Notes: a model not told the origin generated them from the sequence alone. A stretch of DNA of 58,680 nt, filler included, from Malassezia furfur (GCA_052055015.1; 6 parts of 6 records of this genome joined end to end with filler, not necessarily neighbours in it); one strand, 5' to 3'. Counted from the whole stretch's first letter, positions 8,580-53,667 are shown. Program-made: numbers and translations.

Positions 8580-9664
8580 CTATGGTACCCAGACCTGCTC
8601 GAGCTGGTTCGACTCGTCCTGGGCCTGCTGTTGCATTTGCTCCATGTGGGCGCGTGCCAGCTGGTGTTCCTGGGTTTCGGAGCGGAGGCGATTGACGAGG
8701 CGGATGCCATGTACCGCCTTGCGGAAGGTGCGCTTGGCGTTGAAGGCGCTCTTGAGGTCTGGCAGCAGGTCCTTCTGCTCCGCGTCTTCCGTACGTCCCG
8801 CGTGCCGGATCCACGGATGTTGCAGTGCCTGCGTCGCCGTCATCCGCTGGTTCTGGTCAATGGTAAGCAGGCGGCGGATAAAGTCGCGCACCTCGTCAGA
8901 CACGTCACGCCAGTAGATCTCGGGCTCAAACTTGTAGTCGGCATTGACGATGGCCTGCATCTCCTCGGCGCCCGAGTCGCGGTCAAACGGCGTGTAGCCA
9001 CAGAGCAGGAAATAGGTGATCACGCCAATGGCCCACATGTCGACTGGCTTGCCATGGCCCGTCTTGCGGAAGATCTCGGGGGCCATATACCCTGGCGTGC
9101 CGCATGTCGTGCTGAGTGCCGTCATCTTGTCGTCGTCGACCATGCGCGACAGGCCGAAATCGGCAATCAGCAGGTCGGAGTGCTCGCTGCGGTCGCGGAA
9201 CAGCAAATTCTCCGGCTTGAGGTCGCGGTGGACGATGCCCTGCGCATGCAGGTACTCGACCGCCTCCAGCACTGTCCGGATAATCTGAGCCGCATCCTTC
9301 TCATAGTAGCTGCCCCGCTCGCAGATGCGGTCGAACAACTCTCCGCCTTGGCAGAGATCGGTGACCAAGTATAGATTGTTCATCGTCTCGAAGTAGTCGA
9401 CCAAAGATACGATGCCTTTGTGGTCCACCGAGACGCGCTTTAGAGATGCAATTTCGTTGCGCACCATGTGCTCGCGCCCACGCATCAGGCTCTTGCTAAT
9501 GACCTTGCATGCATAGTACTTGCCAGTCTCAATGTGCACCGCTTCCTTGACCACCTGCGTGAATAAAAGTCACGTACAGCATATGTTCCTTGACCAAGCG
9601 TCCGGCCCGTTTTGTAGGCACACGGCACCGTAGCAGGCCGCTGCGCTGCTGCGTTCGTCGCCAT
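8580..9664 (-). CDS. CMK1: Ca2+/calmodulin-dependent protein kinase (CaMK1 family), 1 intron
   Basis: LGQGTYA|VVKEA is restored by a 23-nt intron at 9555-9577. Also HRDLKPEN, DFG, CGTPGYMAPE and a CaM-binding-like FNAKRTFRKAV. Confidence 0.9.
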
Positions 9665-10110: not shown

Positions 10111-12383
10111 ATGCAGGCCGACGTGCCGCCGGGCGCCGCGCTGCACGCGATGCTCGCGACGCCGCACGACGAGCCCGCGACGCACGAGGCATTTGCCGTG
10201 CTCTCGGAAATGTACCCCGGCGCCGACTTGCGCCGCATCCGCGCACACGCGCGGCGCGACCTCCGCCGCGACGCCAACCGCGCGACACGCACGTTTTGCG
10301 CGGCGCTCGCGGACGTCGACGCTGCGCTCGCGGACATGGAAAGCGAGACTAGCAACGCAAAGAAGGCGTGTGAGACGACGCTCGCGTCCATGGACGACGC
10401 CATCGCCGCAGCGCAGCCGGTGCTCGAGCATGCAGGCGCACTCACCAAGCAGAGGTAGGTCCCTCACTCACCCAGCGAAACCGCCCAGCTTCACGAGGAG
10501 ATGGCGCGAAAGCTGCTGGACCGCATGACGCTCTCGGCCACCGAGGAACAGGCGCTCCTGCAGTCCGACGCGCCCGTCGACGCTGCACTGCTTGCGTCCA
10601 TCGACAAGCTGCATGCCATCCTGGGCGACGCCCTCCTCCTCATGGACCTTGGCGACCTGCGTATCGGCGACAACACACCCGCAGACGGTCCCCATCCCGA
10701 GCACCCGTCGTCGGCACGCATCCCGGAAGAGGCCCAGGCCACGATCGATCTTCGTGCGCGCGCGTCGGCCCTGCTCGATACGGCGTACCGCCGCGTCGCG
10801 CATTATGCGTCGTCGGCGCTGCGCCGGCTCCCGATCGAGGGCGCCGAGGCACCCGAGATCCTGCGCGCAGCACTCCAGCGCCTCGCCGCGCGCGAGGACC
10901 TCTTCCGCTCCGTCCTCGCGGCGTTTGCCGAAACGCGCGCGGCGCTGCTTCCCGACGCATTCGTGCATGCGCTCACGGTCGGTGGGCCAGCGCCCACCTA
11001 CCTGCCGCGCCCCATTGAGATGCACGCGCACGACGCGGCACGGTACGTGTCCGACATGCTCGCCTGGGTGCACCAGCTGCTGGCGAGTGAGCGCGAGCTG
11101 ATCGTGTCGCTATTGGCATCGCTAGCACCGCCGCCGCCCGCCGCCGACGATGCCTCCGCACGCAGGCACCACCGCCGGATTGGCGAGCGGCACACGGGCC
11201 TCGACGCGAGCGTCGACCTGCGCGGCGCCGGGCCGCTTCTCCGGCCGGGGCACACGACGCTGGATGCACCCGTCTTTGACGCGCTCGTGCGCAACATCCT
11301 CGAGCGCAACGTCGCAGGCTGTTGCCGCCCACTCAAGGTGCGTGTGCTGCACACGCTGCGCAGCCAGATGGACGGCGTGGTGGTGCTTCGCCTCTATTTT
11401 CTGCTGCGTTTTTACCGCACGACCATGCAGCATACGATCGGCGCGCGTGCCGAGCTTAGTACGACGCTGCGCGAACTTGTGCAGGTCGCCGATGAGTCCT
11501 TTGTGCGTGCGCTTCAGGCGTTCTTTGACGCGCGCCTCGCGCACTTCGCTGCGCTGCCCGGCGCCGACGCACTGGCCGCAACGCGCGAAGCGGCACAGCT
11601 TGTGCGTGCGAGTCTGCAGGAATGTGCTCAGGCGCGCGACGCGGATGCGTCAAGCACCGAGGACGTCCAGGCACTCGAGCGCCACGTCGCCACACACTTT
11701 GTCGAGCCGCTGCGCAAGGGCGTCGCGGCCTGTGCGATGCGGCCACGCGCTGAGACATCCGCGGAGCCCGACGGATGGTCGCGATACCTGCGCTGGTCCG
11801 CGGCACCGAAGGCGGCCGAGCGCGTGTACGAAACGCAGGCGTGGCATGCCGACGTCTTTCTTGTCCAGGCGCTCGCCCCAGTCTGGGTACGTCGATGCAC
11901 TAACTCCAGTCGGCGCTGCAGCCATATGAGGGCGAAACTCAAGCGACTTGCCGTCAACTGTCGGTGCAGCTTAGCGCAGCGCTCGAGCGCATCGCCGAGG
12001 CACACGTACGTCGCTTGCTCACACAGTACACGGCGCTCGTTCAGGATGCGGCGCTCGATTCGGTCGTCAACAAGACGTCGGCGACGGACGCTGCGGTCGG
12101 CGAGGCACTGCATGCTTTTCTAGCGTCGCCTGAGCTGCTCATTGCACCCTCGCGGCTGCAAGCACTTCCTACGCCCCTCCCAGCCACGATCCACCGCGCG
12201 GCGCTCGCCCAAATCGCCCACCAGTACGCCGAAGCGCACCCGGCGCCCGTCTCGCCCGAGGCGGCCAGTCTGCCCGCTCCGAGTGAGGTTGCGATGCTTC
12301 TGGATGTGCAGGACACCAAGAAGGCCATGCCTGCACGTGCATTGCTCGAGCGCGCGCTAGTTGCGTCTACGAAAAGTACTTAG
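10111..12383 (+). CDS. COG6: Conserved oligomeric Golgi complex subunit 6, 2 introns
   Basis: Motif PRPIEMHAHDAARYVSDMLAWVHQ. Introns 10455-10475 (21 nt) and 11887-11909 (23 nt) join three ORF-track fragments in frame. Confidence 0.88.
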
Positions 12384-13174: not shown

Positions 13175-13566
13175 ATGAGTGTGCCCCAACACCCCCAGCA
13201 GCAAGTCATCCTCCAGCACGCGCCGGAGCCCAGTGTGCTTTCGAAGCGTACGTGCACCGACTTACACAGTCACGATGGGCGCCATGATGGGCTCGCTTGT
13301 GGGCCTCACCATTGGCTTTATCGGCGGTGGTTTCCAGATCCTTCGGTACGTCGCCTCTCTGACCCAGTGCCGGTCCTGGCCCCCGCGGTGCTCTTGCGAC
13401 GCTGTCGCAATACATGCTGTCTTCTGGCGCCACGTTCGGCTTCTTCATGTCGATCGGCTCGGTCCTCCGCACCGAGTCGGCGCTGCACGACGACGAGCGG
13501 TGGCGCGCCGCTTTCCGTGCGCACGGCAACCGCGTCACGATCGCCGAGCGTGCGCGGCGCGAGTAG
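13175..13566 (+). CDS. MGR2: Mitochondrial TIM23-associated Mgr2/Romo1, 2 introns
   Basis: Spliced product KLTMGAMMGSLVGLTIGFIGGGFQILRAGPGPRG...MLSSGATFGFFMSIGSVLR. Introns 13248-13269 and 13346-13367 (22 nt each). Confidence 0.9.
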
Positions 13567-14562: not shown

Positions 14563-17500
14563 ATGTCGGCGTGGATGTCGAGCGGGCGCGAGCCCGTGGT
14601 CCTGCTGCAGGACTCGGTGTTCCGCGTGCGCCAGTTCGTGCAGACGCTCCCACCGGGTGCTAACGAGGCGCTGCACGCCGACCCGTACGTCGCGCCGAAC
14701 GCCGCGGGCATCGACGCCGAGTCGGAGTATGCGTTCTGTACAACGGCCGACCGTGCGCATGTCTGGCGGAGCAACAGCGCGAACCCGACGTGCTACACGT
14801 TCCCGATCCCTGCATCGAGCGACCACTGTGCTGTGCACTGCACACTCCTCCCGCGACCGCTCAACGAGAGCGCCGAACCTGCGCTGCTGCTCGCGAATGC
14901 CCAGGGCGAAGTGCGGTTCTGGGACGTGGTCTCTGACGCATTCACCACGCCTGAGGCCGAAATCGTGCAGACCCAGCTCCCGCTCGAGCACGGCGAGGTG
15001 CTTACCGCTGCCACACGCATCGACGTACGTCCCGCCCACTGACGCAGCCGAGCCAAGCCGTGTACGCAACGAGCGCGGCGCGCCTCTTCCGCGTGCATGC
15101 CTACGTACACCGCGGCGAGCACCACCTCGTGCACTCCGTGTATACCGAGCACAAGGGCTTGCTCAGCCGCTTCTTCCAGTCGGCGCCGGGCGCGGCCGGG
15201 AGCGGCACCATCAAGCGCCTTGCGGTCGGCGCCGCGTCGGCGGATGCACTGCATGTGCACCTGTATGCGCTCAGCGCCCATGCCGTGCAGGTGTGGCGCG
15301 TGCCAATCGCCGGCTCTGGCGCGGCGTCGCACCAGCCCAAGCACCTCGTTGACGACGACCAGCTGCACAAGACCATCGCGAGCCGCGCGATGTGTGCGAG
15401 CGGACGGCGGTACAGCAACGCCGCTGGCGCCCAGCTGCAGCTCGTCGACATTGCGCCGTTGTCAGCGCACCGCATCGCCGTGCTGTACGCGGACCAGAGC
15501 GACGTGTCGTCGAGTGCTGCGGCGTACGGCCTGGCGCTGGTGGGCGTCGCCGCCGACGGCACACTGGCCGTAGAGCAGGTGCGTCCACTGGCCTACCGCC
15601 GCGCGAACGACCCCCGTGCCCTGCCGCGCCTCGCCGTGTCCGAGAGCGCGCCGCCCGTCGCGTTTGTCGCGTTCGACGACGCGCTCGTCACGCAGCTGCT
15701 CGGCGATACCGCCGGCGGCGCCGTCGAGGAGAGCGTCGTGCTCAAGCCCGGCGAGAACCGTGTACTGGGTGCGGCACTGGTGCTCGCACCTGGCGCACCG
15801 GGCGCGCGCGCGGTGCGCTGGGCCGCGCAGACGTCGCACAGCGGCGTGCTGCTCGTCGACATGGACGTGGCACATGCGGCACACATCGCCGAGGAGCAGC
15901 AGCCAACGTCGCCGACCATGCACGCCGCGCGCGTTGCGCGCCTCCAAGAGCGCCTCGAGAAGGGCGTGTGGTACGGCGAGGACGCGGCGAATCCGCTGCA
16001 GCTCGACACGCTCCCCGACGACCTCGACACGGATCTGCTGCAGGCCGCTGTCGAAAACATCAGCCGTGCGCTCGTGCGTGGCGAGCTGAGCGCAATGCGT
16101 ACGTCGGTCGACCTGCGCACGGCGCTGGCGCAGCGCGTGGCGTGCTGCGTGCGCCTGATTGCGCTCGTGGGCGAGAATGGCTACCTGATGCGCCTCGCCC
16201 GCACCGCGCGCCTGCAGCTGCGCAGCGATGCCGAGCTGCTGGCCGGTGCGGGCGACCTGTGGCGCTTCTTTGATGATAGCGTGCAGAGCGGCACGCACGG
16301 CGCACACCTGCTCCCCGCGGCGATCCACACCGCGCTCGGCACGCAGAGTACGCCGCACGACACGGAGCGCTTCTTTTTCGAGCACGAGCTGGAGCAGATG
16401 CCTGCGCTGCTCGCCGCACTGCTTGCCGCCGTGCAGCCGCGCACGGACGATGCGCGCGCCGTCGTCGAGGCTACGCGGCTCGTGCTTGCGCTGCGCTTCG
16501 GCGCCGCGCGTTTCCGCGCGGAGCACGGCGAGGCGTATGCCCTCGACGCCACGCCGGCCGTTGCGTTCGAGCCGTGGTTCGCGCACGCGAGCAGCATTGA
16601 GCTGCTCGAGACGCTTTTCCGTGCGACGCTGCACACGCTGCAGCGCAACGCCAAGGGTGTCAAGGTCGCCGAGCTGCGCACGCAGCTGTGTGCGCTCGCC
16701 GAGTTTACCATGGACACGTACGATGCGCGCCTCGTCTACCTCACCGCGGCTGCGGCCGACGGCGACGGGAGCGGTCCGGCGCTCGAGGCGACACGCGCCG
16801 CGTACGACCACGCGCGCCCTGCGCTGCTGCACCCATTGCTCGACGTCGGGCGCGCCGACAAGGCGTTTGCGCTCGCCGAGCAACACCGCGATTTTGCAAC
16901 ACTCACTGCGCTGTGCTTTGCGACCGCACCCGAGGACACCGCGGGTGGCAAACGTGCTAAGCATACGCACCCCGCGGCCGCCGCGCACGAGCCGGCCGAG
17001 GTGCGAGTCGAGGCCTACCTGGACCGATACGGCATGCCGTTTGCCGAGGAGCTGTATCAATACTACATCCAGCACGGCGCGTTCCGCAAGCTGTTTGAGC
17101 CGCAGCCGGAGCATGCGCCGCTTGTGCTCACCTTCCTCGAGACGCATCCGCAGTATCGTCGCATGGCGTGGGTGCACGACGTGCTGCTCGGCCGCTTTGA
17201 CCGCGCGAGCGCCATGCTCCGTGTCTGTGCGCGCGAGGAGCGCGACGACTACCGCGCGAAGCAGTCGATGCTGAGCCTCGGCAAACTCGCACACCTCGCG
17301 ACGCTCAGCGACCTCGACGCGGCGCTCGCCGCGCCGCAGGAGCAGGCGGCGCTCGAGGCGTTTGACGACGCCCTGGACCTCGTCCACGTGCAGAACCGGC
17401 TGCGCGACCGCTGGGCACATGCCGCGCACACGGCCCAGACCGCACCCGAGGCCGCCGCGGAGCGTGTCGTGCAGACCGTCGCGCCGCGCCTCGACGCATG

Positions 17501-23364: not shown

Positions 23365-24961
23365 ATGCTTGCGCCGTCGGTGCGCCGCTGCGCCGCGTCG
23401 CATCTCGGCCGCGCATCCGCACCCGGAGCGACTGGCGCGCGTGTGCGTTTCGCGCCATCGCCTACCGGCTACCTGCACGTCGGCGGGCTGCGCACCGCGC
23501 TCTTCAACTACCTCCTCGCACGGCACACCAAGGGCACCTTCGTTCTTCGCATCGAGGACACCGACCAAACCCGGCTCGTGCCGGGCGCCGCTGACGCGCT
23601 GCAGGACGCACTCACGTGGGCAGGCATCGAATGCGACGAGGGACCCCGCCAGGGCGGCGCGTACGGGCCTTACGTCCAGTCGGAGCGCCTGCCCATTTAC
23701 CGCACCTACGCCGAGCGCCTGCTGCATGCGGGGCGTGCGTACCGCGACTTTCGGCCGCCCGTGCAGCGCGACGCCAACGCACGCACCTCGGCGCTGCTCC
23801 GCGAAGCCTACCTGCCGCCGAGCGAGGACGAGGCACAGGAACGCATCGCTCGGGGGGAGCCGTACGTCATCCGCCTCCGCATGGAGCCTGGGCGCACGTT
23901 TGCATACGAGGACGGCGTGTACGGCACCATGACCTTTCGGCCAGACATGATTGGCGGCGTGGGCGACGACCCGATCATCGTCAAGTCGGACGGGTGGCCG
24001 ACATACCACCTCGCGTCGGTCGTCGACGACACCGAGATGGCCATCACCCACGTCCTCCGCGGCGAGGAATGGCTCCCGTCGATGCCCAAGCACCTCGCAC
24101 TGTACGAGGCCATCGACGCCAAGCCGCCCACGTTTGTGCACCTCCCGCTGCTCATCAACGCGGACGGCAGCAAACTGTCCAAGCGGTCCGGCGACGTGCG
24201 TGTCGAAGACTATCGCGCACGCGGCATCGAGCCCGAGGCGCTCGTGAACCTCGTGGCACTTACAGGCTACAACCACCAACATACGGACGCGGACGACAGC
24301 GACGTGCTCTCGATGGCGCAGCTGATCGACGAGTTCGAGCTGCGCCGCATCTCGCACTCGCGCGCGACGCTGCCCACCGAAAAGCTGCCTTTCCTGAACC
24401 GGCGGCACATGATGGCCAAGATGCACGACCCATCGACGCGCCCGGCCATGCTCGCGCGGCTCCGGCCGCTCTTTGACGCCGAGCTCGGCGCGGAGGCCGC
24501 GCGCGCCATCCCCGACGACGCGCTGCTCGACACGGCGGCGTTGGGATGCCAGCGCGTGGATACCCTCGCGCAGGTGCCGCACAGCGTCGCGTACTATTTC
24601 CAGCAGCCCGACTGGGGCTCCGAAGAGTGCCGCCGCTTTCGCGCGTCGGTCAAGACACCCGCATTTGGTACGTACGGTGCACCGTGTCCCACTAACCGCA
24701 GAGGGCGTCTTGCGCAGCGCACCCACCTTCTTTGAGCAGGTCAGCGCGTGGGAATCGGCGGAACTGCACACCGCGCTGCAGGCATGGATGAAGGCACAGC
24801 CAGAGGGCCGCGCCGCCGTGCAAAAGAGCCTGCGCATCGCGCTCTCCGGCAAGAGCGCAGGACCGCCCGTCGCCGAGATCGCCCATGCGCTCGGCCAGGC
24901 ACAGACCGTGGCGCGTTTGCACGCGGCCCTGGCCTGGGACGCGGCGCATCGCACGCCGTAG
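23365..24961 (+). CDS. MSE1: Mitochondrial glutamyl-tRNA synthetase, 1 intron
   Basis: Arg/Ala/Ser-rich presequence, RVRFAPSPTGYLHVGG, HVLRGEEW, KLSKR. A 34-nt intron at 24668-24701 joins the anticodon-binding tail LRIALSGKSAGPPV. Confidence 0.92.
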
Positions 24962-24963
24962 CA

Positions 24964-25584
24964 TCACCGCCGCTGCGGGCCGGTGTTCTGTAGCGTATCG
25001 ACCATATCGCGGAACTGCGCAATGATCTCGGCCTCTTTGCGCGCGCGCTCTTCGGCCTGCTGCTTGAGGTATGCCCGGCGCTCGTCGGTCGCATAGTTGC
25101 GGCGCGAGCGGCGCTGCGTGCTGGCTGCGTCGCCCGGCGCCGATGCGTCGTCCAGGGGCGGAGTTTCGGTGTACGGCTGCGGCCCCACCTCCTCGTCGTC
25201 GCTCGGATCGGCGGCTCGCGCGGGCGGCGCCGGTTCCTGCCGACGCGGCGACTGTTCCATGCTCTTCGACCGCGAGCGTGACCGGTGGTGGTGGCGGTGC
25301 CGATGCGAGCGATGTGCATGCCGCTCTCGATCTGAGCGGGGCGTGCGGCGGTGCTCATCGTCCGCGTCGTGCGCACGATGCCGCTCGCGGTGGTGCCGGT
25401 GGTGACGACGCGCGCGGTCGGCGTCGTGTGCCGACGTCGCCCGGCGCGCCTCGTCTTCGCTGTCCGAGAGCGAGCGCCGTGGCGAGGGTGGCCAGATCGT
25501 GTACGAGGCTGCCTCGCGTGCCTCGTAGCGCTGCTGTACGCGCGCCGCTACCGCGTCGCGCGCTGCGAGGCCCGTGCTCGCCAT
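24964..25584 (-). CDS. NKAP-like (DUF926/SynMuv) protein with an apparent internal deletion
   Basis: N-terminal IWPPSPRRS, an RS/His-rich middle, EEVGPQP, and a C-terminal YATDERRAY....EERARKEAEIIAQFRDMV matching the NKAP tail YSADEKRAL....EER.KRE..I.A.FREMV. Confidence 0.7.
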   Translation of the reverse strand: MASTGLAARDAVAARVQQRYEAREAASYTIWPPSPRRSLSDSEDEARRATSAHDADRARRHHRHHRERHRAHDADDEHRRTPRSDRERHAHRSHRHRHHHRSRSRSKSMEQSPRRQEPAPPARAADPSDDEEVGPQPYTETPPLDDASAPGDAASTQRRSRRNYATDERRAYLKQQAEERARKEAEIIAQFRDMVDTLQNTGPQRR

Positions 25585-25784: not shown

Positions 25785-27145
25785 ATGACCATTGTCAACA
25801 TTCGCCGCGACGTGGACGACAAGTTCTACCGCTACCGGTACGTATGCACACGACTCACGCAGTATGCCGCTGCTCGAGACCAAGATCGAGGGACGCGGTA
25901 ACGGTATCAAGACGGTGATTCCCAACATGTCGGACATTGCGCGCGCACTCAGCCGCCCGCCGAGCTGTACGTTGCTCTTAACTCACACCAGACCCGGCCA
26001 AGTACTTTGGTTTCGAGCTCGGTGCGCAGACGATTCTCGACGAGAAGAACGACAGGTACATTGTGAACGGTGCGCACGATGCGAACCGTCTGCGTGAGCT
26101 GCTCGACGGCTTCATCGACCGCTTCGTGCTGTGTGGCGCCTGCAAAAACCCCGAGACGGACCTGAAGATCCGCGATGGGGACATTCTGCGCGACTGCAAG
26201 GCGTGTGGCAAGCGCACCCCGCTTGACCCGCGCCACAAGCTCACCACGTACATCAGCAAGAACCCGCCACCGAAGCGTGCCAAGGGCACCAAGGGCGCGG
26301 GTGCCTCTTCCGGCCAGACCGTCGAGGCCGCCGACGACGCAGCGAACGGCGGCAGCGACGACGAGCTCACGCGCCGCATCGCGTCCGAGGCCGCGACCAT
26401 CCCGACGGCTGAGCAGCGTGCCGCGGACAAGGACATCGACGAGGACTGGTCGGTGGACACCTCCGAGGCGGCCGTCGCCGAGCGCGTCAAGGCGCTCGAG
26501 GGCAAGCTGACCAACGTGCTCTCGCTCGGCGACGAGGACGAGGACGAGGGCGAGTCGTCGCCCTACTCGCAGTACGGCACGTGGATCCTCGAGGCGCGTG
26601 ACGCGAACCAGACGCTCAGCGCCGCCGACGTGTACAAGAAGGCACAGGAGCTGGGCATCGAGAAGAAGCACAAGACGCTCCAGGTGCTCTTCCAGGCGCT
26701 CTTTGACGACAAGGCGCCGCAGCAGGTGGAGCAGTACGCGCCCGTGCTGCTCAAAATGGTCACTTCGGAGAAGCACCAAAAGGCGATGCTCGGTGGAATC
26801 GAGCGCCTTGCGGGTCTGCAGCAGCCGTCGCTCGTGCCGAACGGCGTGCCGAAGCTGCTCATGAACCTGTACCAGATCGATGTGCTCGACGAGGACGTGG
26901 TGCGCCAGTGGGGCACCCACGTCTCGAAGAAGTACGTCGACAAAGAGACCTCGAAGCGCGTCCGGAAAGCCGCCGCGCCCTTCCTCGAGTGGCTGGACCA
27001 GGCGGACAGCGACGACGAGGACAGCAGTGACGACGAGGATGATGGCGAGGATGACGAGGATGACGGGGATGCCACCACGCCGCCGGCCGCCAACGGCAAG
27101 CCCAGCGACTACCAGGAGGGCGACTCGGACCTGGACGACCTGTAG
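25785..27145 (+). CDS. TIF5: Translation initiation factor eIF5, 2 introns
   Basis: [17 protein letters not shown]...[21 protein letters not shown], zinc-binding CGAC.NPET...CKACG, W2 domain with acidic tail. Introns 25838-25862 and 25967-25991 (25 nt each). Confidence 0.96.
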
Positions 27146-27206: not shown

Positions 27207-27970
27207 ATGGCCCCCGCCGCGGCCGCTGCGTCCGATCCGTGGGCGGCGACGTACGCTTTGAATGCGCCGCGCCCCGCACAGGCGACGCACACCTACCCGC
27301 TTCCTGCGCCGCCCGAGGCGCAAGCCGCGAGGCCCGTGCCGGATATCCTGGAGCGCCCGCGCGACAAGACGCGTTCCAGCGAGGTCGATCTGAGCGCGCT
27401 CCAGTTCCTCTTTGCCGAGATGGTCGCCTATGCGCAGACGCGCGTCTCGGGCATTGCCGAGTTCGAGCGATTGCTCTCGACGATGGGCGCGCGCGTCGGC
27501 CAGCGTGCGCTCGTGCTCCTCGTGCACCGTAAGGAGACGAGTGCGAACCCCAAAAAGCCGCGGCGCGAAACGCGGCTTTTGCCCACGCTGCTCTGGCTGC
27601 ACACGGCGTTCTGGAAGGCGGTGTTTGGCATGCAGGCCGACAGTCTGGAGCGCAGCACCGAGTCGGGACGCAACGACGAATGTACGTGCCGCACTGACCG
27701 CAGTCATGATTTCGACCAACGACCCCCTCTTTTCGCGCGGCATCTCGATCCCCAAGGAGATGGCGCAGCTGAGTGTCGAGGCATTTGCCGCGGGCATTGT
27801 CGAGGGCGCACTGGATGCGCTGGGCTTTGTACGTGACTGGACGCTGACCACAGCCCGCGCGCGTCACGGCGCATGGGGTGCCGACGGACGCCCATCCCAA
27901 CCGGACCACGATCCTGATCAAGCTCGAGCGGAGTGTGATGGAGCGCGAGGCGGCCCTCGGCGGCTCGTAG
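27207..27970 (+). CDS. TRS31: TRAPP subunit Trs31/TRAPPC5, 2 introns
   Basis: EVDLSALQFLFAEMVAYAQ, FWKAVFG.QADSLE, AFAAGIVEGALD.LGFPARVTAH. Introns 27682-27703 and 27829-27853. Confidence 0.92.
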
Positions 27971-32972: not shown

Positions 32973-35197
32973 ATGAAGGTCGTGGGCCTGCTGTCTGGCG
33001 GCAAGGACAGCTGCTTCAACCTGTGCCACTGCGTGCTGCAGGGCCACGAGGTCGTCGCTGTCGCGACGCTTGCGCCGCCCGGCGGCAAAGGTACGCGTGC
33101 GCCCTCACACAGACGAAATCGACTCGTACATGTACCAGACCGTCGGGCATGACGCGGTGCAGGCGGTTGCCGACGCGCTGCAGGTGCCACTGTACCGCGC
33201 GCACATCACCGGCACGGCCGTGAACCAGGACGCGGTGTACGGTGCACGCGATCCGCGCACATCCGGCGCACAGGTGGGCGACGAGACCGAGGACCTGTAC
33301 CGCCTGCTCCAGACCGTCAAGGCGGCGCACCCGGACGTCGAAGGCGTGAGCGCCGGCGCGATCCTATCCAACTACCAGCGCGTGCGCGTCGAGCATGTGT
33401 ACGTCGCACCCTACTGACGCAGCGCGCGGCGCAGCGATCTGCAGCTCCAGCCCCTCGCATTCCTTTGGCAGCGCAACCAGGCGCATCTCTTAGACGAGAT
33501 GGTGCGCTCCGGCCTCGTTGCGGTCCTGCTCAAGGTTGCCGGCATCGGCCTCACCGAGCGCGACCTCGGCAAGACGCTGCAGCAGATGCAGCCGAAACTT
33601 GCGCAGCTCGTACGTACCTGCCTAACCCCAGAACGCACTGTACGGCGCGCATATTTGCGGCGAGGGCGGCGAATACGAGACGCTGACCATCGACGCACCG
33701 CTGTTTGCGAAGCAGATCGCCATGTACGTGTGTGACTTACGCAGCCACCAAACCGAGACGGTTGTGCATGCCGACGCGGCCTTTGCGAGCGTCAGCTACC
33801 TCCGTGTCCAAAAGACTGAGCTGATTCCCAAGCCGCCGGCGTCGTTTGGCCCGGACGCCGTGCGTGCGGCGCTGCAGGCACCGCCGCTCCTGGATCCAAT
33901 GGGCGAGCATACGTATGCTGTCGCACAGACGCACAGAGCGCAAGGACATGGAGATGCGCTGCCCGCGGCAACGTGTGCGGCAGAGCCCTTTGCGCCGGCC
34001 GTGTACGTCCGCGGCGCATGGCTGGCGGTCGGCGACGTGGCTGGCGTGCCGGAGGACGACTTTGCGCGCGAGACACACAGTGCGATGACGCGCCTCGCAG
34101 ATACGTTGGCGTCGCAAGGCTTCGCGATGACCGACGTGTGCCACGTCAACGTGTACCTTGCGTCGCAGTCGCTCTTCCCCGCGTTCAACGCCGTGTACTG
34201 CACGTTTTTCGGCGCCGCGCCGCCGTCGCGCGCGTGTGTTGCCGTGCCGCTGGGCTCGGGCGGCGCACGCGTTGCGCTCGATGCGGTCGCGTTCCATGAT
34301 ACCCAACCTTCGACACGCCGCGCGCTCCACGTCCAGAGCCTGAGCTACTGGGCCCCTGCGAACATTGGCCCCTACTCGCAGGCGGTGTGCACGGACCACC
34401 GCATCTGGATCGCCGGGCAGATCGGCATGGAGCCCGCGACGCTGCGTGTGCCGCCCGACGAGGCGCTGCAGCTCGCGCTCGCGCTGCAGCATGTGCGCCG
34501 CATCGTGCTGGCCGTGCGCGAGTGGAGCTATGCGCAGAGCGAGGGGTACGTCGAGGGCGGTCTCTGCTGGGTCGCGTCGCGGCATGCCGACACGCTGGGC
34601 GCTGCTGTTGCGCACGCCTGGGGCGAGGCGCACAGCGCCGCCACCGACGAAGACGACGCGGTGCATGCGCACCAGCAAGGCGTGGACGATACGACGTGGC
34701 TCGGTGAGGATCGCGCGCCCGGGGAGCTGCCGCTGCTCCTTGTGCGCCTCGCGGAGGATGCGCTGCCGAAGCATGCAGCGGTTGAGTGGCAGCTGACCGC
34801 GAGTGTGGGCCGCTCGCGCTTTGTTGAGGCGGACGACGACGAGGCGTACGCTGCGCCGAAGGCATGTGCCGGCACGTTTGTGCGTAGCGGCGTGCGGTGC
34901 ACCTACCGTCTGTCGCACGTGCCGATGCTCGACACGTTCCTGGGCGTCGCGACGCTGGAAGCGGCGTCGGATGCGGCGGACGAGGCGAACGAAGCAGCGG
35001 ACGTAGTGTGTGCGGCGCTCGCGCGGTCACTGCATATCCGACTGGTGCATTCGGCGGCACGGGCCGATGCCGATGCGCTGCTTTCGCGCGTGACGGAGCG
35101 CCGCGCGACGGCGCACATCCCCGCACACGGCTGGGCGCTGCCGGGCAGCGCATGGGCGTCGGGCGCGGGTGCGGCCGGCGTCGTGTTCCTCGGGTAG
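32973..35197 (+). CDS. DPH6: Diphthine-ammonia ligase with C-terminal Rid/YjgF domains, 4 introns
   Basis: LLSGGKDS, DEIDSYMYQTVGH, GAILSNYQRVRVE, CGEGGEYET, LHVQSLSYWAPANIGPYSQA. Introns 33091-33112, 33399-33422, 33610-33631 and 33724-33744. Confidence 0.95.
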
Positions 35198-39484: not shown

Positions 39485-42390
39485 ATGGCAGGTGCGCAGG
39501 CGCCGACCGCGGCGGACGCGCCGAGCCCCGACGGTTTGCTGGAGCAGACCAAGCACTATGAGCGTGTACGTAAAGAGGCTCATACAGTTCACCACCGTCG
39601 ACTGGGTCGTCGATGGGCGCCGCGAGCGCGTCAAGATGATGCGCCAGGAAGAAGAGGTGCAGCGCCTCGCGGAGCAGATGCACGAGCGCGGATCGATGGC
39701 GTGGCGCGCGCTGAACCTGCTTGCGTCGCGCCTGCCGCTTGGCGAGTACATGCGTGCGGGCATGCAGCGCGTCGGCGCGTGGGCCGGCCCGTTTTTGTGG
39801 CAGCTGCACACGGTGTTGTTGTCCGCCGCTGAGAACGCCGTGGTGCTGCTCGTGGGTGCGTAGCGCGCGCAGACTGACGCAGGCATCCTGATTGGGCTCA
39901 ACATGGCCATCATCAGCGTGGTCACCGAGTGGGCCTCGGACCTGAAGCAGGGCTACTGCTCCACGGGCTGGTGGCTCAACAAGAAGTTTTGCTGCTGGGA
40001 GCAGATGGACCCCACCGGCCCCGGCGCGGCATCGGTGCCGGTCGGCATCGCTGCTGCGGCCGCGCAGGCGACGGCCACGGCGCCCTCGTCCACCATGACG
40101 CTCGTGAGCAGCGCCCTAGCGCACGCGACGCAACTCGCGCGGCGAGCCAACGGCACCGAACCGGCTGCGGTGGTGTCTGCCATGGAGGAGACGTGCGCCG
40201 AGTGGGTCGAGTGGTCACACTGGACGTTGCCCGCGTACGTGGTGTGGATCGCGATGTCGGTGCTGTTTGCGTCCGTGTGTGCGACGCTGGTCAAGCACTA
40301 TGCGCCGTACGCGGCGGGGAGCGGCATCAGCGAGATCAAGTGCGTGCTGTCCGGCTTCATCATCGACGGCTTTTTGAGTCTGTGGACGCTGGTCATCAAG
40401 AGCATTGGGCTGCCGTTGGCCATCGCGTCCGGCCTGAGCGTCGGCAAAGAGGGCCCGGCCGTGCACGTCGCGTGCTGCATGGGCAACGTCGTGGCCGGTG
40501 CGCTGCGTACGCTGGTGCCGAGCCAAGGTGCGTCGCTGTGCTAACCCAGCCAAGCTGCGCGAGCTGCTCACCGCGTCGAGCGCCGCGGGCGTCGCCGTCG
40601 CGTTCGGCTCGCCGATCGGCGGCGTGCTGTTTGCCCTCGAAGAGATGACGAGCCATTTCCCCGCATCGACCATGTGGCGCACGTTTCTGTGTGCGCTGGC
40701 GAGCACCGCGGCACTGTCGTTCATGAACCCGTTCCGCACGGGCAAGCTGGTCATGTTCCAGGTGGAGTACAGCCGCGACTGGCACTACTTTGAGCTGGTG
40801 TTCTACGTGGTGATCGGGATTATGGGCGGGCTGTACGGCGAGTACGTCGTGCGCTACAACCTCCAGGTCCAGCGCTTCCGCCGCAAGCGCCTCGCACAGC
40901 GCGGTGTCCAGGAAGCAGTCGTGCTGGCGCTGGTCACCGCACTCATCACCTACTTCAACCGCTTCCTGCGTCTCGACATGACCGAGTCGCTCGAGGTGCT
41001 CTTCCGCCAGTGCGAGGGTGCAAGCGACAGCGACGTGCTGTGCCTGTCGCGCGTGCAGTGGTCCATGGCGTTCTCGCTTTTTATGGCGACGGCGCTGCGC
41101 TTCGTGCTGGTGATCTTGTCGTACGGGTGCAAGGTGCCAGCCGGGATCTTTATCCCGTCGATGGCCGTCGGCGCGACCTTTGGACGCATGGTCGGCATCC
41201 TCGTCAAGGCGCTGCAGTCGGCGCACCCCGACTGGCGCCTGTTCAGCGCGTGCACCGCCGGCGAGCCGTGCATCACGCCGGGCACGTACGCGGTGATGGG
41301 CGCGGCCGGGGCGTTGGCGGGCGTTACGCGGATCACCGTCGCGGTGGTGGTCATCATGTTCGAGCTGACCGGCGCCTTGACCTACATCCTGCCCATCATG
41401 CTCGTCGTCGGCACCGCCAAGCTCGTGGCAGATTTGCACGGCAAAGGCGGCGTATCCGACCGGCTGATCAAGTTCAACGGCTTCCCCTACCTCGAGCAGG
41501 AAGACCACCTGTTCGGCACGAGCGTCGGGGCGCTCATCACGCACACGCCATCGGTGCTGTGCGCCAGCGGCGTGCGCCTCGACGAGGTGGAGGCGCTCCT
41601 TGCGCGCGGCACCTTCAAAGGCTTCCCCGTGGTACAGAGCCAAGAGGACCCGACGCTGCTGGGCTACGCGGCACGCAACGACCTGCGCTACGCGCTCGGC
41701 AAGGCCAAGCACCACCAGAAGCTCGCGCCCAGCACCGTGTGCCGCTTCCACCCCGGAAGCTCGGAAGAGTTTGCGCTCACCACCACGCAAACGCACGACG
41801 TGCCGCCGATGCGAGCGACGGGCGGCGGCGTGCCCGACTACGACGTGTGGGAGTCGCTGCGCTTCTTCAGCACCGCACGCGCGGCCGACGACGAGCGCGC
41901 GCGGCACGAGGCGGCGCTCGATGTCGGCGACGACGACGAGGCCGCTGCGCCGCCGCTCGCCACGCTCGAGCTCGGCGCATGGGTCGACCCGACGCCGCTG
42001 ATTGTGCAGCCCGACCTCGACTTGGAGGTGGTCGCGGAACTGTTCCGCCAGATGGGCCCGCGCGTGATCCTCGTGGTGGAGCGCGGCGCGCTGGTGGGCA
42101 TGGTCACGATCAAGGACCTGCTCAAGCACGTCGCGAGCAAGGAGTACGAGGAGCACCACGCGCGCGGTGCAGCGCTGCCCGTCACCACGGACGACACGCA
42201 GCCACACGAGTTCGACGTGGGCACGGGCGAGCTCGAGGCGATGCTCGACTCGCTCTGGCTGCGCTTCGAGGCGCTGGCGGCGCGTGTGCCGTGGCCTGGG
42301 CGCAGCGCGCCGGCTGCGCCGGCCGACCGCGTGCCGCTGAGGACCCTCTACGAGCACCATGATACCGAGGAGACAGAGCATGTACCATAG
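39485..42390 (+). CDS. GEF1: CLC-family Cl-/H+ exchanger with CBS domains (Gef1/ClC-3-like), 3 introns
   Basis: YERFTTVDW, GSGISE, GKEGP (gating Glu), FGSPIGGVLFALEE, PAGIFIPSM, FELTG. Introns 39566-39587, 39856-39882 and 40528-40549. Confidence 0.9.
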
Positions 42391-52325: not shown

Positions 52326-53667
52326 ATGCCACCAGCCGCGTACGACGTGCTGGCGCTGTCGCCGCAGTGCCCGGTGGTGCTGCCGCTGACCATTGCGCAC
52401 CAGTGCGGACAGGCGTTCCGGTGGCGCAAGGTGCTTGTGCCTGCGAGGGGCAAGGAGCCGCGGCGACTCGAGTGGTCGCTGTGCCTGCGTGACCGCGTCG
52501 TGTTCGTCACGCACGATCGTGCGTCGCATGCGCTGCTGCACCGCACCGTGTATGCGCCCAACGCGGCGCGCACCGACACAGCGAGCTGGCTACGAGACTA
52601 CCTAAACCTCGACACGCCCGCGGCGACGTGGTTCGAAGAGTGGAGCGCCAAGGACCCCGTCTTTGCGAAACATGCCCAGCGGTTTGCGGGGGGCAACATC
52701 CTGCGGCAGGACCCGTGGGAGTGCATGTGCGCGTACGTGCCCCGGCTCACACAGCTTTATCTGCAGCTCCAACAACAACATCCCGCGCATCAGCCAGATG
52801 GTGCACAAGCTGTGTGAGCACTTTTCGCCGTGCCTGCATGTCGAAGACTACCCACCAGGCGCCCGCCTGTGTCATACCCTCGACATGAACGAGCTTGCGG
52901 ACGAGCCAGAGAAGCATGTGTCGCTTGCGTACCATCCCTTCCCGCCGCCCACGCGGCTCGCGCAGCCCGACGTAGAGGGACGGCTGCGTGCGTTGGGATT
53001 CGGGTACCGAGCCAAGTACCTCGCACAGACCGCCGCGATGCTGTGCGAAAAAGCACGCGAAGCACTCCCTTTGGGTGCGCCCGACGAGAAGGTCGACGAG
53101 GCCGTGTATGCCGAGCTGTTGCAGCTGCGCCACCTGTCGTACTATGACGCTCGTGAACGGCTGCTGCCCCTTGCCGGCATCGGCCCTAAAGTCGCCGACT
53201 GCATACTGCTCATGTCGCTTGACCAAGCGAGCAGCATTCCCGTGGACCGCCACGTATTCCAGTTTGCCGAGCGGTGGTACGGCATCCGCACGAAACGGTA
53301 CGAAGAGGTCGCCGACCGCCTGCGTGCCATCTGGGGCGAGCGTGCGGGCTGGGCGCACTCGGTACGTCGCGAGACTGACCCCCAGTTCCTGTTCTATGCC
53401 GACCTTCCCTCGCTGCTCGCGTACGAGCCGGATGCCGACGTGAAGGTGGAGCCCAAGGCGGAGCCGGGCGAGGCACCGAACGCAGAGGACTGCGCGCACG
53501 ACACCGATACGAAGCCCAAAGTGGAAGGGGCGCATGATGACATGCCCGCGCCCGCCTCTGTCAAGCTCGAAGATACCGACGGCGTGGTGCCTGCGGACCC
53601 CGCTGGGCGCGACAGCCGCGCCCGCGACGCCATAGAGACTCCTAGCAAACGCGCACGGACCGCGTAG
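52326..53667 (+). CDS. OGG1: 8-oxoguanine DNA glycosylase/AP lyase, 2 introns
   Basis: CGQAFRW, ILRQDPWE..AFICSSNNNIPRI, LGFGYRAKY, HhH-GPD GIGPKVADC...IPVD.H, AGWAHS. Introns 52733-52754 and 53362-53385. Confidence 0.95.

Follow-up and report, generated by a model that had tools for sequence, protein, structure and literature searches.

Malassezia furfur encodes an ortholog of the late splicing factor NKAP from which the conserved core has been removed in frame, and the same core-less form occurs in M. brasiliensis and M. yamatoensis. The gene lies on the minus strand of the window (i.e., the whole stretch of DNA that was analyzed, 58,680 nucleotides). We consider it probable that this NKAP ortholog has undergone one old deletion of its core, that the remnant has since been under constraint, and that the loss was tolerated on a background of tiny introns.

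An NKAP ortholog without its conserved core

The ORF is an uninterrupted single exon of 206 codons by translation (Table 1), and its product is ~100% identical to a deposited M. furfur “hypothetical protein” (CBS14141_002212), from which it differs at one residue in the database search. The counts given for GLX27_002212 in the supplements of Coelho 2023 were considered as expression data for CBS14141_002212 and rejected, as GLX27_ tags are not equatable with CBS14141_ tags. A phmmer search connects the M. furfur protein to the M. japonica cluster (E 1e-25), and among 83 stretches matched in a metagenome scan, seven (L001–L007) encode a relative. The gene order GluRS–NKAP–eIF5 is collinear between the window and L003, L005, and L006/L007, with a GluRS-like gene convergent at the NKAP 3' end, eIF5 divergent at the 5' end, and further collinear genes on both sides. 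The phmmer score and this conserved gene order together place the NKAP match far beyond chance, and the ORF is the positional NKAP ortholog of M. furfur. The stop codons of the GluRS-like gene (TAG, 24959–24961) and of NKAP (24964–24966, minus strand) lie 2 bp apart, so that the two 3' UTRs must overlap antisense; the arrangement is similar in L003 and L006.

Table 1. Coordinates of the NKAP gene, its parts, and example micro-intron candidates, counted from the first letter of the window.
Feature	Position	Strand	Basis
Whole NKAP gene	24964..25584	-	ORF, translation, synteny
N-terminal helix and Y-x-I-W-P-P-S-P motif, aa 1-35	25480..25584	-	alignment A4, AF2
Arg/His-rich low-complexity stretch, aa 57-108	25261..25416	-	composition
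SDDEEVGPQPYT motif, aa 128-139	25168..25203	-	alignment A4
Putative relic linker ETPPLDDASAPGDAAST, aa 140-156	25117..25167	-	alignments A2, A4
Deletion junction, T156 / Q157	25117..25119 / 25114..25116	-	
Kept C-terminal long helix, aa 157-200	24985..25116	-	Pfam, PDB alignment, AF2
Candidate micro-intron	9555..9577	-	motif + ORF scan
Candidate micro-intron	11887..11909	+	
Candidate micro-intron	13346..13367	+	
Candidate micro-intron	15025..15047	+	
Candidate micro-intron	25967..25991	+	
Candidate micro-intron	27682..27703	+	
Candidate micro-intron	33610..33631	+	
Candidate micro-intron	40528..40549	+	
Candidate micro-intron	52733..52754	+	

The protein carries the landmarks IWPPSP (aa 30–35), VGPQP (aa 133–137), and PGDAAS (aa 150–155), the last followed after one residue by QRRSRRNYATDERRAYLKQQAEERARKEAEIIAQFRDMV. 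Within these motifs, W31, S34, and P35 are nearly invariant in alignment A4 and G134 and P135 are invariant. The first 35 residues are identical to M. furfur at 34/35 positions in M. furfur CBS9595 and at 32/35 in M. brasiliensis, which also shares 12/12 residues of the SDDEEVGPQPYT motif. The Arg/His-rich stretch (18 R and 14 H among 52 residues), predicted by AF2 to be disordered (pLDDT <50), occupies the place of the RS and basic regions of animal NKAP.

Alignment A2 places a 45-column gap in M. furfur (a 45-column gap is also present in A4) opposite M. japonica residues 131–175, equivalent to human A322–R366, and a further 5-column gap opposite M. japonica 115–119, where a conserved upstream Y-G is gone. 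Across 21 NKAP sequences from fungi and animals, 33 columns are invariant; M. furfur keeps five of them, has seven changed (all flanking the deletion), and has lost the remaining 21 with the deleted block, which thereby ranks with the best-conserved parts of NKAP. The invariant core block (GKRIPRRGEIG ... G-Y/F-VMSG-S/A-RH ... AVR) is absent from the M. furfur protein. GPQP and RRSRR are separated by 20 residues in M. furfur vs. 68 in M. japonica, leaving no room for hidden coding sequence, and tblastn of six orthologs (five with an intact core and the core-less M. yamatoensis protein) against the window returned nothing at E <0.1 beyond the NKAP gene itself.

Profile and structure searches locate the break in the same place. 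In a search with the Pfam Nkap_C profile (PF06047; DUF926/SynMuv_product), M. furfur residues 158–196 match only the C-terminal helix portion, positions 63–101 of 102 (E 1.3e-4), and the whole-protein score of 22.5 bits falls below the gathering cut-off of 25 bits; the M. brasiliensis protein scores 23.2 bits over positions 67–101. In comparison, seven intact Malassezia-type orthologs score 134.8–148 bits, with coverage of positions 2–101 or 4–101 in 6/7 and of 2–99 in the other (P0048), and intact relatives overall score 134.8–161.7 bits. The relevant matches among solved structures are to human NKAP only (7w5b_3, also 8c6j, 9fmd, and 9xu3), M. furfur residues 157–195 aligning to human 367–405 (7w5b_3) with a weak E of 0.33; the M. 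furfur long helix corresponds to this human segment and beyond. AF2 predicts only three helices in M. furfur (4–25, 44–49, and 153–200; pLDDT ~90 for the last and <60 for the remainder), while in M. japonica it predicts extra helices at 126–135, 150–159, and 165–181, ahead of the long helix at 185–222.

These results bear out much of the preliminary description of this gene, which had called the protein NKAP-like—an assignment now carried by synteny, the phmmer match, and the partial Nkap_C match—and had named the three landmarks and reported that some 45 near-invariant residues were absent from an intact frame, with too little DNA between the landmarks to hide them. It had also put the gene forward, together with an intron finding, as the best candidate for an undescribed system in the window; on that point we differ, as the M. 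furfur protein is a core-less variant of NKAP and not a new system.

Distribution of the deletion across Malassezia

The deletion is fixed in M. furfur. The 90%-identity cluster of M. furfur NKAP comprises 11 member sequences on 116 contigs (4+53+45+5+3+1+1+1+1+1+1) from NCBI, Logan, and ENA assemblies, and the junction ...[AS]STQRRSRRNYATDERR... is found in 11/11 members. A 148-residue ENA sequence (P0004), which is the M. furfur protein over its first ~61 residues and wholly divergent thereafter, comes from an 874-bp contig and is probably frameshifted or chimeric.

The core deletion is also present in M. furfur CBS9595 (KAI3626545.1, CBS9595_001906), M. brasiliensis (WFC93459.1, MBRA1_000079), and M. 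yamatoensis (WFC98733.1, MYAM1_001465), the last detected when the C-terminal 58 residues were run with HMMER against 1.84 billion representatives (12 hits, E up to 0.001). These proteins have the same deletion and junction type as M. furfur and vary in the length of the His/Arg-rich region, and that of M. yamatoensis has an overall identity of 36% to M. furfur NKAP. For annotation, four deposited hypothetical or uncharacterized proteins can now be reannotated as truncated NKAP orthologs scoring under the Pfam threshold. An intact core is encoded in M. japonica (WFD38100.1), M. vespertilionis, and Malassezia sp. CBS17886 among the named matches, none of which bears the name M. psittaci or M. 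obtusa, and further in L003, L005, and L006 (with NKAP a single exon in the latter two) and in the P0006, P0008, P0024, and P0048 types.

Several features point to a common origin of the core-less forms. The GPxP-to-RRS[RK]R linker is of similar size in M. furfur and M. yamatoensis (20 and 18 residues, vs. 68 in M. japonica), and the two share the derived residues K178R and E179S in columns invariant in 21 other sequences, as well as a basic residue (R in M. furfur, K in M. yamatoensis) in place of Q181, which is invariant in the same number. An ML tree also joins them, with moderate support (UFboot/SH-aLRT 81/91) from a short alignment. Given the similar linker size, the shared derived residues, and the tree grouping, the simplest reading would be a single loss before the M. 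furfur and M. yamatoensis lineages diverged. According to Coelho 2023 (PMC10410736), M. brasiliensis falls inside the M. furfur complex, and clade A contains the groups M. yamatoensis/M. psittaci, M. furfur/M. brasiliensis, and M. japonica/M. obtusa, M. vespertilionis being the earliest to diverge. We propose that an old, in-frame deletion of ~135 bp, since fixed and accompanied by local decay around the deletion site, may have been a single event on the stem shared by the M. furfur complex (M. brasiliensis included) and M. yamatoensis, later than the divergence of the M. japonica lineage.

Another state of the core, degenerate and not deleted, occurs in P0010, P0176, P0190, and P0191 from Logan/ENA assemblies. 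In P0010, P0176, and P0191, RRGEIG is shortened and Y/F-VMSGSRH has become FIVSNAEK; Nkap_C matches the degenerate form with 44.9 bits over positions 21–101. This lineage sits on a branch of 2.15 with no firm placement in the ML tree, and a homology search with P0010 yielded one further cluster only. It may be an intermediate or a parallel stage of decay, and it hints at weakened constraint on the mini-domain in at least two related lineages; with the tree position not firm, more than one independent decay event is possible.

Micro-introns, constraint on the remnant, and alternative explanations

A motif and ORF-joining scan detected 23 candidate micro-introns in the 58.7 kb of the window (examples in Table 1), with a median length of 23 nt (range 22–34), GTACGT-type 5'SS, CTNAC-type branch motifs, and a median spacing of 5 nt between the branch A and the final base of the intron (n = 23). 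A looser first scan had given 40 window candidates, 23 of them at 21–27 nt; the longer ones look like coding sequence and were rejected. Among 13 candidates in the relatives, five were validated by homology, one was spurious (antisense to eIF5), and seven had no window counterpart. All five validated introns, each from a core-intact relative, are 23–27 nt long with the branch A 5–6 nt from the 3'SS. Orthologous introns are also alike in length: the second eIF5 intron measures 25 nt in the window and 26 nt in L006 (9503–9528), and the intron at 27682 measures 22 nt in the window vs. 27, 27, and 26 nt in L003, L005, and L006.

In M. furfur, two 25-nt introns interrupt the 5' part of the eIF5 gene (25785–27145, plus strand); the first (~25838–25862) was recognized by eye, the scan having missed it on account of the short upstream exon. 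Both are lost in L003 and L005, and L006 keeps the second only; conversely, a validated 23-nt intron in the GluRS gene of L006 has no counterpart in M. furfur. Gain and loss of micro-introns is evidently ongoing within the group.

The preliminary description had explained the loss of the core by co-evolution with micro-introns that have their 3'SS hard-wired to the branch point. Such an adaptive loss would fit the position of the deleted block, which is exactly the part beside the branch-point-to-3'SS loop in the human C* spliceosome (PMC9984181), as well as the median of 5 nt between branch A and 3'SS in M. furfur and the shorter unfiltered distance in the window than in L003 and L006 (median 5, n = 23 vs. 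median 7, n = 8; Mann-Whitney p 0.0077). However, we discarded this last difference because it rests on unverified candidates and validated introns show 5–6 nt in both groups; intron length does not differ between the same sets (p 0.17), orthologous introns are alike, and the core is intact in the clade-A species M. japonica and M. vespertilionis and in relatives that themselves bear micro-introns of 23–27 nt with the same spacing. Very short introns are moreover reported for all haploid Malassezia (PMC7426719), with a mean of 37.2 nt and a median of 30.0 nt in M. restricta (PMC9241646, Table 1). Short introns throughout the genus and in core-intact relatives imply that tiny introns are much older than the deletion, which is confined in our ortholog alignment to the M. 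furfur complex and M. yamatoensis and does not track intron shortening. The loss of the NKAP core does not explain the micro-introns, and we regard the co-evolutionary account as quite unlikely.

Conservation within the remnant is uneven. The C-terminal helix (aa 157–200) is identical to M. furfur at 44/44 positions in CBS9595, 43/44 in M. brasiliensis, and 26/44 in M. yamatoensis, compared with 66/91, 32/49, and 20/71 in the middle region and 10/17, 12/17, and 0/6 in the linker (aa 140–156; Fisher, helix vs. positions 1–156: p = 0.00015, 0.0015, and 0.001, respectively). By these counts the remnant helix appears preferentially conserved, and purifying selection seems to have acted since the deletion on the two motifs WPPSP and GPQP and most of all on the helix. 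The linker is the least conserved segment of the protein and is polymorphic within M. furfur (PGDAAS, PSDAAS, PGVAAS); from this low identity and polymorphism, the “PGDAAS landmark” is best read as a decaying relic, and the linker as a whole as a putative degenerate remnant of YG..LLPGEGAAMA. The low-complexity middle region changes rapidly in length, and M. brasiliensis lacks a 43-residue Arg/His-rich stretch (aa 74–116, 25237–25365, minus strand) that is present in both M. furfur lineages.

The whole locus might be a functionless, decaying relic, with NKAP heading to complete loss as in S. cerevisiae, from whose spliceosomes it is absent per Dybkov 2023 (PMC9984181). The alteration of seven otherwise invariant residues around the deletion, the polymorphic linker, and the long branches of M. 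yamatoensis (1.44) and the M. furfur stem (0.65, vs. 0.23 for M. japonica) are all compatible with this; yet 11/11 M. furfur variants have an intact ORF, as do three other named lineages; WPPSP and GPQP are retained; and within the M. furfur complex the helix is fully or almost fully conserved, against a divergence of ~20% elsewhere in the protein. We give general decay of the gene little credence and favor a constrained remnant.

Conservation of the helix could also reflect a role outside splicing, the remnant having been co-opted for chromatin, transcription, or RNA binding by its basic region, or the helix having acquired a new partner. Animal NKAP has been reported in transcriptional repression, and its RS and basic regions to bind proteins and RNA independently of DUF926 (PMC3950704). 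The helix residues that were kept are, however, the ones that fungi and humans have in common; this speaks for the ancestral partner and makes co-option very improbable in our judgment.

An assembly or annotation error is scarcely credible, and so, on indirect grounds, is a full-length second NKAP elsewhere in the genome: the junction recurs in all 11 variants on 116 contigs and in four named lineages, so that the core deletion is not an assembly artefact, NKAP is single-exon in relatives (L005, L006), the window contains no other NKAP match, and no protein named M. furfur is among the best 120 of 1939 matches to M. japonica NKAP—all 120 of which have PF06047—in a database that includes annotated M. 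furfur proteomes.

The remnant in the light of known spliceosomes

In the human C* spliceosome, the NKAP domain at residues 329–358/359 sits on the PRP8 RH-En linker, where it connects the N-terminal with the C-terminal part of SLU7 and touches the 3' side of the branch-point-to-3'SS (PPT) loop, and the long helix at 360–413 runs to PRP22 and docks on its RecA2 lobe (Dybkov 2023; PMC9984181). Knock-down of NKAP moves NAGNAG 3'SS choice to the distal site (PMC9984181), and in Leishmania NKAP braces the PRP22 RecA2 lobe (PMC13601561). The placement of NKAP near SLU7 and PRP8 in the preliminary description agrees with these structures, in which the lost block sits on both (PMC9984181). As the gap equals human A322–R366, the whole PRP8/SLU7/loop-side mini-domain and the first seven helix residues are gone and the PRP22-reaching part is kept.

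For the remnant we propose a reduced form of this role; both its part in the spliceosome and the reason why the loss was tolerated are inferred. The deletion removed the Nkap_C mini-domain (human A322–R366, including the 329–359 domain), after which the gene was kept, with WPPSP, GPQP, and the C-terminal helix apparently under purifying selection. The shortened NKAP may still join late (C*/P-stage) spliceosomes via its basic Arg/His-rich region, its N-terminal motifs, and a helix that, extrapolating from the human and Leishmania structures, presumably contacts PRP22 RecA2 (i.e., as in the human and trypanosomatid complexes). It would no longer clamp the PRP8 RH-En linker, SLU7, and the 3' side of the branch-point-to-3'SS loop. 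With 5–6 nt between branch A and 3'SS there would be almost no loop to hold, and the loss was probably tolerated for that reason; the genus-wide tiny introns would be a permissive background rather than a co-evolving partner.

The strongest form of this model—that exon ligation in M. furfur and M. yamatoensis proceeds with NKAP cut down to a PRP22-bracing helix and N-terminal tethers, the clamp being dispensable at 5–6 nt—is, in our estimation, doubtful. If true, it would constitute a natural separation-of-function allele of a C*-stage factor, compensating changes would be expected in SLU7 or the PRP8 RH-En linker along with altered use of tandem 3'SS, and the degenerate-core lineage (P0191) would represent a second, intermediate stage of the same relaxation. 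More generally, the loss of the core with conservation of the rest suggests that the N-terminal motifs and the PRP22-facing helix can function independently of the PRP8/SLU7-docking mini-domain. This would amount to a natural domain dissection of a late splicing factor in a genetically tractable yeast with introns of 21–27 nt, for which close relatives with the intact form (e.g., M. japonica) are available for allele swaps. Our literature search found no paper joining NKAP with Malassezia; a search on Malassezia introns and the spliceosome returned nothing on NKAP core loss among the titles and abstract openings listed, and the main text of the preprint “Coupling of spliceosome complexity to intron diversity” mentions neither NKAP nor Malassezia.

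Compared with human NKAP, the M. furfur protein is alike in its N-terminal W-x-x-SP, basic low-complexity middle, GP-x-P, and C-terminal long helix, and unlike it in lacking A322–R366, i.e., the whole 329–359 mini-domain and the base of the helix; the middle region is Arg/His-rich in M. furfur and Lys/Ser-rich in human. The closest named ortholog with an intact core, that of M. japonica (WFD38100.1, P0011; deposited as NF-kappa-B-activating protein C-terminal domain-containing protein), belongs to the same clade A and has a similar length (223 aa) and the same motifs, but differs in its full Nkap_C match (144.2 bits, positions 4–101) and in three extra predicted helices at 126–181. S. cerevisiae is another fungal lineage without the NKAP mini-domain, though by a different route: its spliceosomes lack NKAP entirely, whereas in M. 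furfur the remainder of the protein is kept and conserved.
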